Virus record (IMG/VR): IMGVR_UViG_3300047457_000500
Coordinates: 32,001-96,000 of that record
Origin: a virus
Reading direction: 5' to 3' (one strand)
DNA: 64,000 nucleotides
The notes below the pieces were generated by a model. That model was not told where the DNA came from, searched no databases, and saw only the letters and a program-made list of their open reading frames with translations. Positions within the stretch are counted from its first letter, which is position 1. Every line of letters starts with the position of its first letter. Made by a program: the position numbers and the translations under genes. Positions 46,907 to 57,815 of this stretch are shown here, piece after piece.

Positions 46907-47074
46907 ATGACACTAGGCGGATACACTTATCAGGTAGGCGATTTATTCACCACCTCTAAGACAGGAGTTACAGGACGAATTGAAAAGTTTGTTCCTATCT
47001 CTCGTAATGTTACCAGAGTCATGCTACGCTTGGCAAATAACCAACAGCGTTTTGCTATGGTCAAAACACACTAA
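46907..47074 (+). CDS. Small SH3-like protein (paralog of 47171..47338)
   Basis: MTLGGYTYQVGDLFTTSKTGVTGRIEK; SD AGAAAGGA. Confidence 0.6.
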   Translation: MTLGGYTYQVGDLFTTSKTGVTGRIEKFVPISRNVTRVMLRLANNQQRFAMVKTH

Positions 47075-47418: not shown

Positions 47419-47841
47419 ATGGCACGACAAAAAGCAATTAGCGTGAAAATCGCTACAACCAAAGTTATCAAGGCTTTGGAAACTAAGTTAGCACAAATCA
47501 AGAAAGATAAGGCTAACCAAAAAACTAACGAGGAGAAGTATCAGAAGGCTCACGAAAAGTGGCTAAAAGATGTTGCTAAACTTTCTCTCGCTCAAATCTC
47601 AAAGGCAGAAAACCTACGAGCAAGCACACGCTACAATGGCATGGTAAATGTAGATTTTGATTTGCCTAAGTCTGTGGTAGCAGATTTCCCTGCTGAACCT
47701 GAAAAGGATTTTGAGACTTTTCATGAGTGGCAGTATAAGGAAATGGTTGAGGAAATTGAGAACGCAATTCGTATTCTCAAGATGACAGATGAGGAAGTAG
47801 TTTCTACTTCTACTTACAACGCTATCGCTAGATACTTGTAA
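47419..47841 (+). CDS. Hypothetical coiled-coil early protein
   Basis: 140-aa ORF, SD AAAGGA. Confidence 0.65.
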   Translation: MARQKAISVKIATTKVIKALETKLAQIKKDKANQKTNEEKYQKAHEKWLKDVAKLSLAQISKAENLRASTRYNGMVNVDFDLPKSVVADFPAEPEKDFETFHEWQYKEMVEEIENAIRILKMTDEEVVSTSTYNAIARYL

Positions 47842-47912
47842 TTTGGTTGGGGGAGGGTATTTGACTCCCCCACTAATAAATGCTATGATTAGATAATACG
47901 AAAGGATAAGCC

Positions 47913-48326
47913 ATGGAAACAACTAACATTCATAACGTCACTGAGGAATTTTTAAAAACTCAGATTACACAAAAAGATGAACGAATTCAGGTCCTGGAAG
48001 AGCATGTACAGCGTGTAACACAGCGTGACTACGCTACCGCTGGAAAACTGCAGGCAATGCGAGACGGTCTACACGAGTGGACTATGACTGAATTAGAAAA
48101 TAATGGAATCACAGAGGAGCAGGCTACTGAACTTTCTGAGATTGGTGGATTTGAACTTACAAAAGAAGTAGAGGCTGAAGTTACAGTCCGCTACTGGATT
48201 ACTCTTCAGATTCCTGCAGGAGAAGACGCAGAGTCTGTAATCAATGATATTGATTTCGACGCAATTACATATGATACTGATGTGATAACACATGTTAGTT
48301 CATCTGTAGACAGTATCGATATCTAA
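47913..48326 (+). CDS. Hypothetical acidic early protein
   Basis: 137-aa ORF with own promoter (TTGACT...TGCTATGAT). Confidence 0.65.
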   Translation: METTNIHNVTEEFLKTQITQKDERIQVLEEHVQRVTQRDYATAGKLQAMRDGLHEWTMTELENNGITEEQATELSEIGGFELTKEVEAEVTVRYWITLQIPAGEDAESVINDIDFDAITYDTDVITHVSSSVDSIDI

Positions 48327-48332
48327 CAATCT

Positions 48333-48437
48333 TCCTGGCCTTCATGAAAGGGGCCAGGATCTGCAAGCATCGCTCTTCTTTCATCCTTTCTTTCAAAGAG
48401 CATGCAAGGGACCTGAGCACGTCCACGTAAACTGCTC
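48333..48437 (+). ncRNA. Structured intergenic RNA: hairpin, anti-SD-loop hairpin and pseudoknot copy 2
   Basis: TCCTGGCC/GGCCAGGA; GCAT.GCTCTT/AAGAGCATGC with loop CTTTCATCCTTTCTTTCA; GGAC-CTGAGCAC-GTCC-ACGTAAAC-TGCTC. Confidence 0.65.
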
Positions 48438-48576
48438 ATTTTTTATTGAAAAAGTGGTCGGGCGATTTGTCCTATATGTCCGATTTACGAATTATGATCA
48501 TATTCCCCAATCCTGGATTTGCTTTTGTCACCCCATTGTGCTAAACTTTAGATAACAAAACAGAAAGGAAATAAAA

Positions 48577-49584
48577 ATGGCTCATGAATTAGAATCTGCT
48601 AATTCTTTCGCATCATTCCGTGAACCTGCTTGGCATGGTTTAGGAACTGTATTTCAGGAGGAAGTTACTACTGAAAAAATGTTGGAACTCGCTAACCTTG
48701 ATGGTTGGAATGTTCGTCTTGAAGATGTCGTAATCCCAGACACTCTTTCATCTGATAAATCTTATCAATATGTTGTGCGTGATAACCCATTCACCGCAAA
48801 TCAAGTTGATGTTCTAGGCGTTGTTGGTGAACGCTATGTCCCATTGCAAAATGAAGACCTATTCACATTTGGTGATGCAATTCTTGATGGCGGAGGTCGT
48901 TGGGAAACTGCTGGCTCATTGCGTGGTGGTCGTGTTGTATTTGGTTCTCTTGCTCTTGAGCGTGAGACTGTTCTAGACCCTAATGGCGTCGCTGATGTTG
49001 TCAAGACTTATCTTCTTGTCAACACATCACATGATGGTTCTGTTGCTATTCAAGCATCTGTAACACCTGTTCGTGTTGTATGCGCTAACACTCTTGCTGT
49101 TGCACTAGGTCGCACTAGCAAAAAGGGTGGCGTAAAACAATCATTCAAGATTCGTCACACACAATCTGCTGAGGGTAAAGTTCAACAGGCTCGTGAGGCT
49201 CTTGCTGTTGCCAATGCTTATATGGATTCATTCTCTCTAATGGCTAAGGCTATGATTGAGAAAGAAATCACAGCGCAACAATTCAATGATATTGTTCTCG
49301 CTGCGTATCCTAAGCCTGATGAAACCAAAAAGGGTGCATTGTCTAAGTGGACAACTAAGATTGACACTATCAATGACATCTATACAGGTGAATTCAATGG
49401 CATGATTGCTGGCACTGCATGGGGTGCATGGAATGCACTTACAGAAAGAATCGATTGGTATCGTGGAGGTAAGCGTGGTCTTACTGAATCAATTCTAATG
49501 GGTTCAAGTGGATTTGACCCTGCTATCACAGCAGAAAAAAATCGTTTGCTAACTATTGTTCGCAACTCTCTAGAATTGGTGTAA
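48577..49584 (+). CDS. DUF932 / TIGR03299-family phage-plasmid protein
   Basis: PAWHGLG, Y.P.QN, ETAGSL.GG, YLL..TSHDGS, TPVRVVCANTL, IRHT, GTAWGA.NA.TE. Confidence 0.85.
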   Translation: MAHELESANSFASFREPAWHGLGTVFQEEVTTEKMLELANLDGWNVRLEDVVIPDTLSSDKSYQYVVRDNPFTANQVDVLGVVGERYVPLQNEDLFTFGDAILDGGGRWETAGSLRGGRVVFGSLALERETVLDPNGVADVVKTYLLVNTSHDGSVAIQASVTPVRVVCANTLAVALGRTSKKGGVKQSFKIRHTQSAEGKVQQAREALAVANAYMDSFSLMAKAMIEKEITAQQFNDIVLAAYPKPDETKKGALSKWTTKIDTINDIYTGEFNGMIAGTAWGAWNALTERIDWYRGGKRGLTESILMGSSGFDPAITAEKNRLLTIVRNSLELV

Positions 49585-49591
49585 CAATTCA

Positions 49592-49618
49592 ACTCCTGAG
49601 CATGAGTAAAAACTGCTC
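49592..49618 (+). ncRNA. H-type pseudoknot motif, copy 3
   Basis: ACTC-CTGAGCAT-GAGT-AAAAAC-TGCTC. Confidence 0.75.
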
Positions 49619-49716
49619 TCTTGACAAAGATCAAAAAAGGTGCCGACCAAAAATATCATTTAGAAATTTAATTACGATACGTTGACAAAATCCCCAAATT
49701 TTGCTATTATTTATTC

Positions 49717-49911
49717 ATGGACCAAAAAGAACTAACGACATACATGACAAACCTGCGTAGTGGCCTGGATGAAGACCTACGTAATCTTGCTGCAGAAATG
49801 GACTCTATTGACCCTGCCTCTAAAGACTTTGCAGACCTAGACTTTGAGTTTAATTATATTACAGGACAAGTATCAATGTTAAGCCATATACTACAAAAGA
49901 TAGGACAATAA
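49717..49911 (+). CDS. Hypothetical protein
   Basis: Leaderless ORF behind TTGACA-N17-TATTAT. Confidence 0.55.
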   Translation: MDQKELTTYMTNLRSGLDEDLRNLAAEMDSIDPASKDFADLDFEFNYITGQVSMLSHILQKIGQ

Positions 49912-50121
49912 TGCTGGGGTATACAGAAGAACAAGTAGATAAGATGCTCACTACATTAAACTATACTATTCATCATCATATGACTGGTAAGTTTGCAGAT
50001 GAGGATAGGTCAGTACTTAGAGATCTAGAGGACTTCTTACAGGGTTTGTTAGCAGAGGGACGTATTTGACATCCCCCTGATATTTTGCTAGAATTGCATA
50101 CAACGACTAGAAAGGAATAAT

Positions 50122-50817
50122 ATGCCAAATTGGGTATATAACTCTCTAACTATTGAGGGTAATGCAGAAGACATTTCTGCTATCAAAACACAACTAAACC
50201 AACCATTCCAACGTCAACACGACCAATGGAATATGGAAACAAGACAAATGGAATTACAGGATGTTACTTATTCAAACCCTGTATTTGCATTCTGGAATAT
50301 TATCAAGCCAACTAATCTAGAGGCATACAATAAGCAGTCTGACCATTCATTACCTATGGAAGAACAACTTATGTTCAAGGGTGATAACTGGTATGACTGG
50401 AATGTAACTAACTGGGGAACCAAATGGGATGTTGCTGTATCAGATAATGAGCAGTATCCTGAGACTGAACTAATCAACGAAGAGGATTGGTCAGATAGAC
50501 TTACCTATAGTTTCAATACCGCTTGGTCTCCTCCTCTTCCTGCTATTGCTACATTGTCAGAACAATATCCTAATTTAGAATTTACCTTGTCATACGAGGA
50601 AGAAACAGGCTGGGGTGGCGAAATAGAGTTCCTCAATGGTCAAGATACTGTATTAGAAAACTATGAAAACAAATGTCGTGACTGTGATTCAATCAACACA
50701 CTAGAGTATTGCGAAAACGACTGTGGTGAGATATGCTCTGATTGCCATTACATGGGTGAGGCAGACTTAGAGTGTGTTGCAGAGTGTGACATACATAAAG
50801 AATACTTGGAGGCATAA
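50122..50817 (+). CDS. DUF1281/YubB-like ferredoxin-fold protein
   Basis: MPNW..N.L.I.G, WYDWN..NWGTKWD, F.TAWSPP, YEEE. Confidence 0.75.
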   Translation: MPNWVYNSLTIEGNAEDISAIKTQLNQPFQRQHDQWNMETRQMELQDVTYSNPVFAFWNIIKPTNLEAYNKQSDHSLPMEEQLMFKGDNWYDWNVTNWGTKWDVAVSDNEQYPETELINEEDWSDRLTYSFNTAWSPPLPAIATLSEQYPNLEFTLSYEEETGWGGEIEFLNGQDTVLENYENKCRDCDSINTLEYCENDCGEICSDCHYMGEADLECVAECDIHKEYLEA

Positions 50818-51068
50818 TGTTACCTGATTATCTAAAGAATGCAATCAATGCAGGTGCTACAGGACTAGATGTCATGCACGGGCACCTGAAGACGCTTATG
50901 CTTGACGCAGAACGGGAACTAGAAGAGGCGCAGCGGGTAGAAGACGAGACCGAAGAGGCCATTGATTCCATGGAGCGCAAGTACTGGGAGGGACAATTAG
51001 ACGCCCTATCATATGTTTATAGCCTTACATATGAACTGTCATTTGCAGTAGCGGATAGGGAGGAATAG
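50817..51068 (+). CDS. Hypothetical protein
   Basis: SMERKYWEGQLDAL; translationally coupled. Confidence 0.6.
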   Translation: MLPDYLKNAINAGATGLDVMHGHLKTLMLDAERELEEAQRVEDETEEAIDSMERKYWEGQLDALSYVYSLTYELSFAVADREE

Positions 51069-51147
51069 ATCCACGTGTATGAGCAATTGACATTAGACCT
51101 GGACCCTGATATCATTAATACAAACCCAACTACAGAAAGGACCCCCC

Positions 51148-51507
51148 ATGGGAGCACGTTGTAACTTTATCTTTAAACAATCAGAGGACCAGGCCGTAGC
51201 GCTGTACAGCCACTGGGACGAAGACCATATGTATGAACTCCTGGCAGCAGCCCTGCAGCATGCAATGCCACGTATTCAAATGGGTGATACCCCGTATGCG
51301 ACTCGTATGGCTATCAGTTACATTATCAAGGATAGTATCTTAGATGAGACTGGATATGGAATTTATGCCTGTGACCCCTCAGACCAGGGATTCATGGACC
51401 ATCCAATCACAATAGATTTCACAGACGGTACCGTGGGCAGCGGTGAAGACTGGCACTCAATTCCTGATTTTATTTCTTATCATTCTGCTCAGTTAATTAC
51501 AAAATAA
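51148..51507 (+). CDS. Hypothetical early protein
   Basis: MG.R......LYSHW...D..YATR...GYGI; SD AGAAAGGA. Confidence 0.65.
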   Translation: MGARCNFIFKQSEDQAVALYSHWDEDHMYELLAAALQHAMPRIQMGDTPYATRMAISYIIKDSILDETGYGIYACDPSDQGFMDHPITIDFTDGTVGSGEDWHSIPDFISYHSAQLITK

Positions 51508-51514
51508 TAACTTT

Positions 51515-51562
51515 GGGGCGTAAGGTTTGGTTTATTCCTTTCGTCGTTGTGCCTTGCGCCCC
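51515..51562 (+). ncRNA. Hairpin with loop antisense to the 50100-50120 leader/RBS
   Basis: GGGGCGTAAGG/CCTTGCGCCCC stem; loop contains TTATTCCTTTCGTCGTTGT; T-run shortly after. Confidence 0.7.
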
Positions 51563-51592
51563 TCCCACTTTTTTGATAGAATAGGAGTAACT

Positions 51593-51811
51593 ATGACTAC
51601 ACGCAGACACAGACTAACTGACGAGGAACGAGTTGCCATGCGCCTTGCCACTTTAGTATCTGACTTGCGACTTGACATCGAGCAGGTTGGGCAGTATTTA
51701 GCGCAGGTAGCACCAACAGTATCGTATAATAGACTTATCACAATCGCAGAAAGCGCACAACATCACAAAGAGGAGAAATACAATGAGCAATACCAATACA
51801 GACTTTTCTAG
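51593..51811 (+). CDS. Hypothetical protein
   Basis: ORF, SD AGGAG. Confidence 0.6.
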   Translation: MTTRRHRLTDEERVAMRLATLVSDLRLDIEQVGQYLAQVAPTVSYNRLITIAESAQHHKEEKYNEQYQYRLF

Positions 51812-52055
51812 TCGTTGTAATATTCTGGCAGACCTGTGGTTGAACTATAAAGATGATGCTGAGTTTTCTGACTTCATACAATATAATGACATGGGTTTGC
51901 CCCTAGCATTTTTTGTTAGTCAAGAAGTTGTTCCTAGTAATGATATGGTAATGAACTATGTCAATGAAACTTGGGAGTTATTCTTAGAGGCTCTAAAGAT
52001 AGAAGACACAGGGTTTGACACACTTGACGAATTGCTAATGGGATTTGACAAGTAG
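51783..52055 (+). CDS. Hypothetical protein
   Basis: ORF, SD GAGGAG. Confidence 0.6.
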   Translation: MSNTNTDFSSRCNILADLWLNYKDDAEFSDFIQYNDMGLPLAFFVSQEVVPSNDMVMNYVNETWELFLEALKIEDTGFDTLDELLMGFDK

Positions 52056-52063
52056 CCACGAAA

Positions 52064-52700
52064 GTGGTCGGCATATTATTTTAGTTATACAAACCATTAC
52101 GATACCAAACCATTTTTCCCCAAAATAGGATTACGATCCAAACCATATTTTTCCCAAACCATGATAAATGGTGTTATGATTATATGTATGCCAAGACATT
52201 TTTATAGAGTTAATTATCCAAACCAAGCAAATGATGATGATAGAGGTTTGCATAATGCCTTTGTAGCCTTTACTCATCTTATAGGTCTTAGTAAGTACTT
52301 CTCTTTTATCCCGCCCGTTTTTGACAGGGACGAGTGGCGGGCCGAACACGGGGCGGGATCTAAAAAAGATTACGATCATACCATATATCCCCCTAATAAG
52401 CAATAACAAACCATATTTCCTGGTTTTAAAACATTTTCAAACATAATAAAAAGTATTACGAACTTATTGGAATTTTCCCAGACTTTTGGCAATTTTTCTG
52501 CATAAATCTATTACGAAGATACTTGACAAACCATGGTTTTGCAGATATAATGCCCAAACCTTGATATATGGTTTGACAGATATGGGGCATATATGGTATA
52601 AGGGTTTGATGGATATAGGGTTTGATGGTTTGGCATTACGATCCCCGCATTAAAAAGCGCTTCATTACCCATATCTCTCCACTATCCTCCACTTTACTCC
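52064..52700. repeat. Probably non-coding region of dispersed ATTACGA and AAACC(AT)/(AT)GGTTT repeats
   Basis: ATTACGA six times; AAACC copies give way to GGTTT copies around the palindrome AAACCATGGTTT near 52528-39. Confidence 0.65.
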
Positions 52701-52761
52701 ACATATAAAATAACAGTAAGATTTATTTTTCAAAATAAGCGATGCTATAATTAAGTTTGCC

Positions 52762-53253
52762 ATGATAAAAGACGTATTTACGCAGCCACAAATAGATTTT
52801 ATAAACCAACTCGTGTTGGATAACTATGACAAATTGGATAGCAGGTATTCAGAACGAGGTAGGGAAGATATCGTTTTAACTCCCAATGGGACAGCAGCAT
52901 TTGAGAACCTAAACCCTATTGCCAAAGAAATATGTGACCGTGTGCTTTCATATTTTGATGAGGGTAAATACATCAATGCCATAACCTATGGTGAATACAC
53001 AAACAAACACACCAACCCTAATCTTCCACCACACAAGGATCCTATCCATACCAAGAATGGCCTAACCTTTGACTACCTATTGGATTCAAATGTTGATTGG
53101 CCAATATGTCTGGAAGGTGACTGTGTGAGCCTAGAAAAGAATGATGCTATCATTTTTAGTCCATGTGAGCAGTATCACCACAGACCAGAAATGATATTTA
53201 ATGATGGCGATTATGTTAAAGTTTTATTTTTTATGATTAGGACAAACCAATGA
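52762..53253 (+). CDS. 2OG-Fe(II) oxygenase-like (H.D...HHR family)
   Basis: Y....PNLPPHKD...TFDYLLD...W...NDAIIF...HHR. Confidence 0.65.
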   Translation: MIKDVFTQPQIDFINQLVLDNYDKLDSRYSERGREDIVLTPNGTAAFENLNPIAKEICDRVLSYFDEGKYINAITYGEYTNKHTNPNLPPHKDPIHTKNGLTFDYLLDSNVDWPICLEGDCVSLEKNDAIIFSPCEQYHHRPEMIFNDGDYVKVLFFMIRTNQ

Positions 53254-57034: not shown

Positions 57035-57108
57035 GGAGCAGTAGCCAAGTTGGTCAAGGCCCCGAACTCATAATTCGGCTATCGTAGGTTCGAGTCCTAC
57101 CTGCTCTA
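57035..57108 (+). tRNA. tRNA with CAT anticodon (Met elongator or Ile2)
   Basis: Cloverleaf; CCGAA-CTCATAA-TTCGG; GGTTCGAGTCC. Confidence 0.85.
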
Positions 57109-57111
57109 CAA

Positions 57112-57273
57112 GGCTCATCAGGAATTCGACCTCTCGATGAGTACAACTGCCCTGAAACCAGCCTGGTGGTAGTCGTTGGATAACCTGTGTCGAACAGGCC
57201 CAAGCAGACAGCATCTAAGGAGCAGAGCCAGTAGTTATATTCGCCGTAAAAACGGGTAGCGTGACTGGCACCC
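57112..57273 (+). ncRNA. Unassigned structured RNA inside tRNA cluster
   Basis: GC-richer than flanks, with several stems (GCTCATC/GATGAGT, CCTGT/ACAGG, GCCAGT/ACTGGC, CCGT/ACGG). Confidence 0.5.
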
Positions 57274-57275
57274 AA

Positions 57276-57348
57276 GCCCTTGTAGCCCAGTGGTAGAGGC
57301 ACACGACTTAAAATCGTGCAAGCGTTGGTTCGAATCCAACCAGGGGTA
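57276..57348 (+). tRNA. tRNA-Leu(TAA), short variable loop
   Basis: CACGA-CTTAAAA-TCGTG; GGTTCGAATCC. Confidence 0.9.
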
Positions 57349-57349
57349 C

Positions 57350-57426
57350 GCATCTGTAACTCAGTTGGTTAGAGTACCCGCCTTATATGCGGAGAGCCGA
57401 AGGTTCAAGTCCTTCCAGATGTACCA
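57350..57426 (+). tRNA. tRNA-Ile(TAT)
   Basis: CCGC-CTTATAT-GCGG; GGTTCAAGTCC; encoded CCA. Confidence 0.8.
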
Positions 57427-57427
57427 G

Positions 57428-57499
57428 ACCTCTGTAACTCAGCGGAAGAGTAGCGGACTTCTAATCCGTTTGTCGCAGGTTCGATTCCTGCCAGGGGTG
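57428..57499 (+). tRNA. tRNA-Arg(TCT)
   Basis: GCGGA-CTTCTAA-TCCGT; GGTTCGATTCC. Confidence 0.9.
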
Positions 57500-57515
57500 C
57501 TACAATTAAGTACTT

Positions 57516-57591
57516 TGGTCTGTAGTTCAGTTGGTAGAACACTCGACTGTTAATCGAGATGTCGCAGGATCGAGACCTGCCAGACCAGCCA
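57516..57591 (+). tRNA. tRNA-Asn(GTT)
   Basis: CTCGA-CTGTTAA-TCGAG; atypical T-loop ATCGAGA; encoded CCA. Confidence 0.85.
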
Positions 57592-57592
57592 A

Positions 57593-57666
57593 GGTCCGTT
57601 AGTTCAGTTGGTTAGAACGCTACCCTGTCACGGTAGAGGTCGTCGGTTCAAGTCCGATACGGATCG
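57593..57666 (+). tRNA. tRNA-Asp(GTC)
   Basis: CTACC-CTGTCAC-GGTAG; GGTTCAAGTCC. Confidence 0.9.
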
Positions 57667-57667
57667 C

Positions 57668-57738
57668 TGGAACATAGTGTAGTGGTAGCACAACGGATTC
57701 CAAACCCGTTAGTGTGGGTTCGATTCCTACTGTTCCTG
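57668..57738 (+). tRNA. tRNA-Trp(CCA)
   Basis: ACGG.-TTCCAAA-.CCGT; GGTTCGATTCC; 1:72 mismatch. Confidence 0.85.
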
Positions 57739-57742
57739 CAAT

Positions 57743-57814
57743 GGCACTATCGTCTATCGGTTAGGACATCGCCCTTTCACGGCGGAAAGACGGGTTCGAT
57801 TCCCGTTAGTGCTG
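57743..57814 (+). tRNA. tRNA-Glu(TTC)
   Basis: TCGCC-CTTTCAC-GGCGG; GGTTCGATTCCC. Confidence 0.9.
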
Positions 57815-57815
57815 C

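Follow-up and report, generated by a model that had tools for sequence, protein, structure and literature searches.

The loop of a terminator-type hairpin at the end of a small early-type phage operon is complementary to the 5' leader of g231, the first gene of the same operon, and we propose that the two segments pair as RNA and form a brake on translation. Judging from the sequence, we give this brake a probability of about 0.45. The DNA analyzed, called the window here, is a stretch of 64,000 nucleotides comprising bases 32001-96000 of a 123,487-bp virus record (IMGVR_UViG_3300047457_000500, a ~123-kb genome). The phage was recovered in lake-water metagenomes, and its DNA has a G+C content of 37%. 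Its portal protein is 46-47% identical to the portals of ~128-kb Streptomyces phages; the phage is not T4-like, and our guess for its host is a freshwater actinobacterium. The elements on which the argument turns are the following:

50066..50094, plus strand: predicted promoter P1, TTGACA, 17-nt spacer, TG-n-TAGAAT; 11 of 12 consensus positions, kept in relatives
50099..50121, plus strand: 5' leader of g231, from ~+1 through the Shine-Dalgarno sequence (SD) GAAAGGA (50110-50116); sense partner for both antisense sites
50122..50817, plus strand: g231, DUF1281_C (Api92-like), Cys-rich C-terminus; Pfam E = 1.1e-13
50817..51068, plus strand: g83, no assigned function; homologues syntenic in relatives
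51148..51507, plus strand: g119 (phrog_31860), final gene ahead of the hairpin; SD AGAAAGGA
51515..51562, plus strand: terminator-type hairpin, arms 51515-51526 and 51551-51562, 24-nt loop; from sequence and folding
51527..51550, plus strand: loop (site A), of which 51532-51550 is antisense to leader 50100-50120; core CCTTTC, an anti-SD
51554..51582, plus strand: predicted promoter P2 for g72, -35 TTGCGC 51554-51559, 17-nt spacer, TG 51574-51575, -10 TAGAAT 51577-51582; read from the sequence and relatives
51593..51811, plus strand: g72, no assigned function
51803..51819, plus strand: site B, CTTTTCTAGTCGTTGTA; 17 bp with leader 50099-50115
51783..52055, plus strand: g90, no assigned function; 29-nt overlap with g72

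The leader at 50100-50120 reads ACAACGAC-TA-GAAAGGAATAA, with the g231 ATG at 50122. The loop at 51532-51550 reads TTATTCCTTTCGTCGTTGT, whose reverse complement is ACAACGAC-GAAAGGAATAA (8+11 nt). The two therefore share 19 complementary nucleotides with a 2-nt bulge (TA) on the leader side, and the SD at 50110-50116 is included. From the position of P1, the complementarity would begin at about +1. The original prediction had described this match, a near-consensus promoter before it and a DUF1281-like first gene after it; the sequence and all the coordinates of the match are as it gave them, and the promoter and Pfam assignments listed above bear out the rest. Two features had been missed, namely the second antisense site at 51803-51819 and the fusion of the hairpin to the promoter of the next gene. 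Site B was found by a repeat search, in which its core at 51805-51819 (TTTCTAGTCGTTGTA) is a perfect 15-nt complement to leader 50099-50113. Two further pairs, one G-U and one G-C, lengthen these 15 Watson-Crick pairs to 17 bp at 51803-51819, a stretch that covers the g72 stop codon (51809-51811) and g90 codons 7-13. Cofolding of site B with the leader gains -17.9 kcal/mol over the separate folds. On the minus strand, the reverse complement of site B resembles an SD leader, and 9 nt downstream of it begins a very hydrophobic open reading frame (ORF) of 32 aa with a TTG start (51698-51796), antisense to the 3' end of g72; this ORF is probably due to chance.

Two antisense sites of this strength set the g231 leader apart. 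As a control, the best and second-best antisense local alignments in the 3.5 kb downstream were scored for all 170 ORF starts of the genome. The g231 start has the highest best score (31, followed by two gene starts at 29 and 27), and its second-best score is 30, with all the others at or below 23. One strong antisense match is about a 1-in-100 event, and two on one leader are unique in this genome. The 8-mer ACAACGAC occurs three times in the window (0.68 expected), on the plus strand in the leader and on the minus strand in the loop and at 51811-51818, all within 1.72 kb at this locus; the genome holds four copies in total, the fourth in an unrelated context. In addition, a duplex scan of the 26-nt loop against 40-nt segments, in 8-nt steps on both genome strands, places the g231 leader first at -30.1 kcal/mol, followed by a coding site (-23.5 kcal/mol) and the start region of the 47913 gene (-23.4 kcal/mol).

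The complementarity had been taken to imply a specific target. The leader is indeed the best partner of the loop in the genome, but the CCTTTC core is the complement of the SD AGAAAGGA, which is used by the promoter-proximal genes at 46907, 47419, 47913, 48577, 50122 and 51148, and so it matches other early leaders as well. Loop duplexes with other gene starts reach -22.6 kcal/mol at the 47913 gene, -18.0 at 46907, -16.2 at 47419 and -15.7 at g119. The proposal that the loop shuts off the first gene thus drew the target too narrowly, since the 47913 and 46907 genes are matched too.

The strongest hint of selection comes from a related contig, L008, in which the leader, the loop and site B are all conserved. 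The window and L008 have diverged at 22-42% of fourfold sites in the surrounding genes (36/167 in the DUF932 gene, 11/26 in g72, 5/15 in g52 and 5/16 in g90), while the hairpin is identical at 47 of 48 positions and the loop at 25 of 26. The 18-nt leader core ACAACGACTAGAAAGGAA is identical in the two, and the bases on either side of it differ; the leader ends in CCCAATG in L008 and TAATATG in the window. The window loop pairs with the window leader at -30.1 kcal/mol and with the L008 leader at -25.1 kcal/mol, and the L008 loop pairs with its own leader at -30.0 kcal/mol. The single change in the L008 loop, T to G, is the best among the 78 possible substitutions for pairing with the L008 leader, which fits selection for pairing. 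Gene conversion would not readily yield this change, because the new pair spans a 3-nt bulge.

Both partners appear accessible. The mean unpaired probability of the loop is 0.86. For the leader, the minimum free energy (MFE) fold of the first 62 nt leaves the initial 21 nt unpaired, and the mean unpaired probability is 0.63 in a 122-nt context. With the stem closed, segments of about 10-13 nt could pair at -12.9 to -16.5 kcal/mol. RNA-library contigs identical to the window (runs X15-X18) cover 50123-50680 and 50144-51262, and one bridges 51470-51809; these contigs carry no ends, strand or usable depth, DNA carry-over is possible, and the parts that they leave uncovered are uninformative. In contigs from X15 and X16, position 47843 is followed, after 3-4 other letters, by position 49593; the 1749 bases left out contain the 47913 gene, a structured element at 48333-48437 and the DUF932 gene, and these contigs probably come from a related phage that lacks that module.

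The hairpin that carries the loop has an MFE of -24.2 kcal/mol (z = -2.6 against shuffles) and, among the genome's 8 hairpins with perfect stems, ranks as the strongest and is the only one of its form. An 11-bp GC-rich stem followed by a U-run had been claimed. The stem is GC-rich, with 12 pairs of which eight are G-C and two G-U, but the T-run at 51569-51574 starts 6 nt past it, and a simple terminator scan gave no call there. The -35 of P2 sits in the 3' arm and the T-run lies within the P2 spacer. Because of this position of the -35 and the conservation of the pattern in relatives, 51515-51562 reads as a terminator-promoter cassette upstream of g72. Related loci were gathered with g231 and g72 as queries (35, 11 and 80), and the metagenome scan for relatives was built on an alignment of 9 closer sequences. 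Among the 127 sequences inspected, 110 have a g72 homologue and 61 have homologues of both g231 and g72. Nearly all of the 81 distinct 120-nt sequences 5' of g72 carry a GC-rich hairpin, C-rich bases and a T-run merging into TGATACAAT; these relatives have shorter loops, and their tails read CTTATTTTT. Of 36 distinct hairpin sequences, 33 were aligned (L171, L190 and L251 were left out as outliers); in these, CTTGC of the 3' arm is invariant, TGATACAAT is nearly so, and all six consensus stem pairs show double, pair-preserving changes. A hairpin on the opposite strand was considered and rejected, as the relatives conserve the T-run on the plus strand and have none past the stem on the minus strand. 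We also rejected a longer g72 whose N-terminus would run through the loop: that frame is open from TTG 51527, but L008 has an in-frame TAA 12 nt 5' of the ATG.

Rfam matched no family, C4 included, in 48000-53000 at E up to 1, and in the loci of six relatives it matched nothing but tRNAs. Most relatives (L166:2880-2925, L170:2890-2928, L236 and others) have one or two extra hairpins between g119 and the terminator. One lies at the end of g119 (GTGAC-GACG-GTCAC). The second combines covarying stems with a loop, (T)TGGGTC(A/C), that is conserved, as in GGAGGG-TTGGGTC-CCCTCC. Neither gave an Rfam match. Both are lacking in the window (51508-51514) and in L008.

Loops in most relatives are 8-16 nt long. 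One class, TTTGTGGTGGG, is common and is retained while the stems covary; further classes include GCGTGGGG and several singletons. The hexamer CCTTTC occurs in seven distinct loops whose contexts otherwise differ (L166, L170, L172, L178, L201, L008 and the window). Between the 47913 gene and the DUF932 gene, at 48333-48437 of the window, there is another structured intergenic element. The loop of its hairpin (~48380-48397) bears TCCTTTCTTTC, the anti-SD motif found in the g72-position loops of L170 and L178. Anti-SD loops thus recur, in relatives as well as in another hairpin of the phage itself; the original prediction had suggested a family of loop-antisense phage regulators. The 24-nt loop is found only in the window and the L008 type (L008, L009 and L183), where complementarity flanks the anti-SD core on both sides. 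Searching IMG/VR with a 14-nt loop pattern returned at least 126 loci, almost all of them chance matches, with L050 (the same as the L008 contig) as the sole relative; longer loop patterns returned only two L008-type contigs and L260, a GC-rich, unrelated chance match.

We next summarize the proposed mechanism. The hairpin would act as the intrinsic terminator of the early unit g231-g83-g119, fused to the g72 promoter. In this lineage, its loop would have been lengthened from the 8-16 nt of the relatives to 24 nt and would be mostly single-stranded. The 3' loop could then pair with the g231 leader in cis, on one transcript, or in trans, between transcripts or 3' fragments that have accumulated. 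Such pairing would cover the SD and lower initiation as transcripts accumulate, and might also create a substrate for a double-strand RNase. The anti-SD core CCUUUC may act more weakly on other early leaders with AGAAAGGA, and site B, in the g72/g90 overlap, would offer the leader a 17-bp partner on read-through or P2 transcripts. The transcript starts and ends, the timing, the release of a 3' fragment, the pairing in cells and its effect on translation are what we infer from these sequences. We raise, as a tentative and rather doubtful extension, that freshwater phages of this group use the loops of early terminators as built-in antisense regulators, in which an anti-SD mimic can be extended to a gene-specific anti-leader. 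Finished transcripts would then titrate their own and sister ribosome-binding sites (RBSs), giving a protein-free, self-timed shut-off, with a second clamp in the next operon linking two units.

Several points weigh against a translational brake. A 19-26 bp duplex is impossible inside a closed loop, so that partial pairing or opening of the terminator is needed. Opening the stem for the full duplex is not favored by RNAcofold, in which the hairpin stays closed in the minimum-energy structure; RNAcofold has no means of modelling intermolecular pairs within a closed hairpin loop, and its result does not bear on loop pairing. As a terminator the hairpin is sub-optimal, with 24 nt in the loop and 6 nt separating the stem from the T-run, and the RNA ends used here are promoter and terminator predictions. 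The anti-SD core is generic and would let the loop pair with other early leaders. Site B is mostly paired locally (unpaired probability 0.26) and is ordinary coding sequence (FSSRC), with the same TCTAGTCGTTGT codons in the distant relative L246. The long loop is confined to two lineages, and the evidence from covariation therefore amounts to a single substitution. There is no loop/leader complementarity in L001 (g72 90% identical, loop ACAGTCAC), L167 (88%) or L189, so pairing is not a required feature of the cassette.

The family as a whole adds little to the case. The g231 start ranks first among the gene starts of the locus in 15 of 32 loop/leader combinations. The mean fractional rank over 10 loop classes is 0.19 as observed, 0.24 with reversed loops (p = 0.15) and 0.36 with shuffled loops (p = 0.005). 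With the reversed-loop control nearly as good, we did not count the family-wide pairing between loops and g231 starts as covariation; the preference is inseparable from base composition. Outside the CCTTTC and long-loop classes, the pairing signal is mostly compositional (G-rich loops against a C-rich start region). A cross-matrix of loops and leaders shows clade-level blocks only, and lineage-specific matching is confined to the window and L008. The covariation expected of loop and leader is accordingly seen as one compensatory change in this pair, but not as a family-wide signal separable from composition.

Conservation of the hairpin and leader may also have other causes, as they hold a terminator, a -35, a start site and an SD. 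Furthermore, the window and L008 are mosaic. Amino acid identity between them is 67% for g231, 57% for g83 and 39% for g119, and it is far higher in the flanks (DUF932 93%, g52 85%, g72 87.5%, g90 79%, g163 90%). The breakpoints of this module (window 50099-51562 against L008:3990-5600) fall at the P1 leader and the hairpin-P2 cassette, which suggests cassette-mediated exchange of g231-g83-g119. Because the leader and the hairpin are the junctions of the swapped module, recombination could have homogenised both. On these grounds the complementarity might be a mutational or recombinational relic, in which a template switch or gene-conversion patch, primed on an ancestral loop TTCCTTTC (the SD complement), copied part of the leader. 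Site B would then be coding sequence that the leader happens to resemble, and the identity between the lineages would stem from cassette recombination, not selection. The mosaic of a diverged module between much closer flanks (85-93%) agrees with this, as do the restriction of the long loop to one lineage pair, the close relatives that manage without complementarity, and the TCTAGTCGTTGT codons of L246; TTCCTTTC in the short loops of relatives such as L170 and L178 supplies the microhomology. However, the TA of the leader is missing from the loop, which is thus not a plain copy. The 25/26 identity of the loop in the face of 22-42% fourfold divergence requires selection or a very recent local exchange, and none of the 78 possible substitutions would compensate better than the sole loop change, which lies across a 3-nt bulge, a position that gene conversion would not account for. 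Two high-scoring antisense sites for one leader are also unique among the 170 gene starts. We consider such a relic unlikely.

In another scheme the leader would control termination. A free leader would pair with the nascent loop and block the stem, leading to read-through into g72-g90, whereas with a ribosome-bound leader the terminator would form. The 26-nt duplex (-30.1 kcal/mol) is about as stable as the hairpin (-24.2 kcal/mol) and is topologically incompatible with the closed loop, and the RNA-library contig that bridges 51470-51809, in which DNA carry-over is possible, would fit read-through. The SD of g72 lies between the P2 -10 and the ATG, which are only 10 nt apart, so that SD-dependent translation of g72 may depend on read-through transcripts. 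The partners are, however, 1.4 kb apart, and their pairing would have to form faster than a local, GC-rich stem of 12 bp, which stays closed in the RNAcofold minimum-energy structure. Literature searches turned up no precedent for such control, and we regard it as improbable. As an observation on P2 itself, the last base of its TAGAAT is 51582 and the ATG of g72 follows at 51593 (51577-51595) with the SD AGGAG between, so the predicted transcript would be leaderless or nearly so; the spacing from the -10 to the ATG is greater in relatives than in the window.

The similarity might instead act in DNA. The three ACAACGAC(TA)GAAA copies could be protein-binding sites near two promoters, or the loop DNA could serve as upstream sequence of P2. 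The three copies of the 8-mer in the window do cluster within 1.72 kb, one of them spanning +1 to +20 relative to P1 and another roughly -28 to -46 relative to P2, and their orientation is irrelevant for duplex DNA. Yet the motif has no dyad symmetry beyond CTAG, a fourth copy lies elsewhere in the genome in unrelated surroundings, and no DNA-binding domain was seen in the neighboring proteins; a PDB profile search with g72 and a lenient Pfam scan of the small neighbors gave nothing usable and lend no support to a DNA-binding neighbor. A role in DNA would also leave unexplained why one copy sits in a hairpin loop and why the loop change matches the leader change across the bulge, and it is a poor candidate. 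Finally, a chance likeness of two A/C-rich, SD-containing sequences is very improbable: early leaders share an A/C-rich tract and AGAAAGGA, so that any anti-SD loop fits several, and two more of the 170 gene starts have a single antisense score of 27-29, but here the top score is joined by a second of 30 against at most 23 elsewhere, a gap of 6.6 kcal/mol separates the leader from the next genome-wide partner, and all three elements are conserved in L008.

The operon belongs to a series of small, plus-strand early-type genes at 48.5-52.1 kb, which also includes:

48577-49584, plus strand: DUF932 gene, early-type gene row
49717-49911, plus strand: g64, early-type gene row
49911-50069, plus strand: g52, early-type gene row
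51087..51115, plus strand: predicted promoter-like site, TTGACA-17-TATCAT with TG, 5' of g119

Upstream of the ATG at 49717, a TATTAT -10 ends at 49710 (49682-49719), and the predicted transcript would be leaderless or nearly so. The gap after g90 holds tandem 34-nt direct repeats (ATTACGATACCAAACC...), 71% identical, at 52096-52163. A single tRNA lies just 3' of the DUF932 gene in L008 (3438-3511) and L016 (2798-2871); the window has none there, and L236 has one at 1085-1158. Further downstream, a cluster of 8 tRNAs occupies 57035-57815 of the window (Met, Leu, Ile, Arg, Asn, Asp, Trp and Glu). Megablast of 49500-52200 found no match among isolated phage genomes, and the sole tblastn match of g231 was to a Puniceispirillum phage at 38% coverage.

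Three observations mainly give a translational brake of this kind its interest: the compensatory change, the double antisense and the recurrent anti-SD loops. To our knowledge, the shut-off of early proteins has been worked out closely in only a few model phages, where it is mostly protein-based. If the brake exists, it would be a very compact and evolvable timer, which needs no extra gene, could be retargeted by a few substitutions and would travel with exchanged terminator-promoter cassettes. It would extend self-pairing between the 3' and 5' untranslated regions (UTRs), so far found in a handful of bacterial mRNAs, to phages and polycistronic messages, and would provide a simple design rule for synthetic self-limiting operons. 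If the complementarity is only a relic, it would be a clear case of templated copying that makes long-range complementarity, from which regulation could later evolve.

Literature searches found no description of a phage terminator loop antisense to the leader of its own operon, which is not proof of absence. Related arrangements are known. An interaction between the 5' and 3' UTRs is reported for hbs. The c4 antisense RNA of phages P1 and P7 is a processed RNA of ~77 nt, located upstream of its targets, whose two loops pair with RBS leaders of its own unit. As in c4, exposed loops of a phage RNA would here pair with the RBS leader of the same transcription unit; unlike the processed, upstream c4, the element described here is a 3' terminator loop with no Rfam C4 match in 48000-53000. 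IS10 RNA-OUT is transcribed from the strand opposite its target, RNA-IN, and there, too, the loop of a stable stem-loop meets the extreme 5' end of the target and extends over the SD. Complementarity is automatic for RNA-OUT because it comes from the opposite strand, whereas the phage partners lie on the same strand, 1.4 kb apart, and their complementarity had to evolve or be copied.

The terminator-promoter cassette itself resembles the PeSL cassettes of T4-like phages, in which a stem-loop stands directly before a sigma-70-type early promoter between small early genes; the roles ascribed to the cassette there are recombination and regulation, not antisense by its loops (PMC4122927). Here, a sigma-70-like promoter likewise follows a stem-loop, with TTGCGC-17-TG-n-TAGAAT overlapping the 3' arm and the T-run. 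Modules between PeSL cassettes are swapped among related phages, comparable to the exchange of g231-g83-g119 with L008, and PeSL cassettes occur in many copies per genome in hyperplastic regions, whereas the present genome has 8 strong hairpins and one of this form. In addition, this phage is not T4-like and its -35 lies within the 3' arm of the stem.

The closest tested precedent for the proposed pairing is icaR of Staphylococcus aureus, whose 3'UTR pairs with the SD of its own mRNA, blocking initiation and producing an RNase III substrate (PMC3868564). Both have a pyrimidine-rich anti-SD motif at the 3' untranslated end that is complementary to the SD region of the same message. The icaR message is cellular and monocistronic, and its long 3'UTR carries a 7-nt motif, UCCCCUG. 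In contrast, the proposed phage element lies inside a terminator hairpin loop, matches 19-26 nt from the 5' end of the transcript through the SD, belongs to a 1.4-kb polycistronic message whose hairpin is fused to the next promoter, and has a second site. The proposed brake would thus be an instance of 3'-5' self-pairing by way of an anti-SD motif, a kind of control already known, and what would be new is the use of a phage terminator loop as the antisense.

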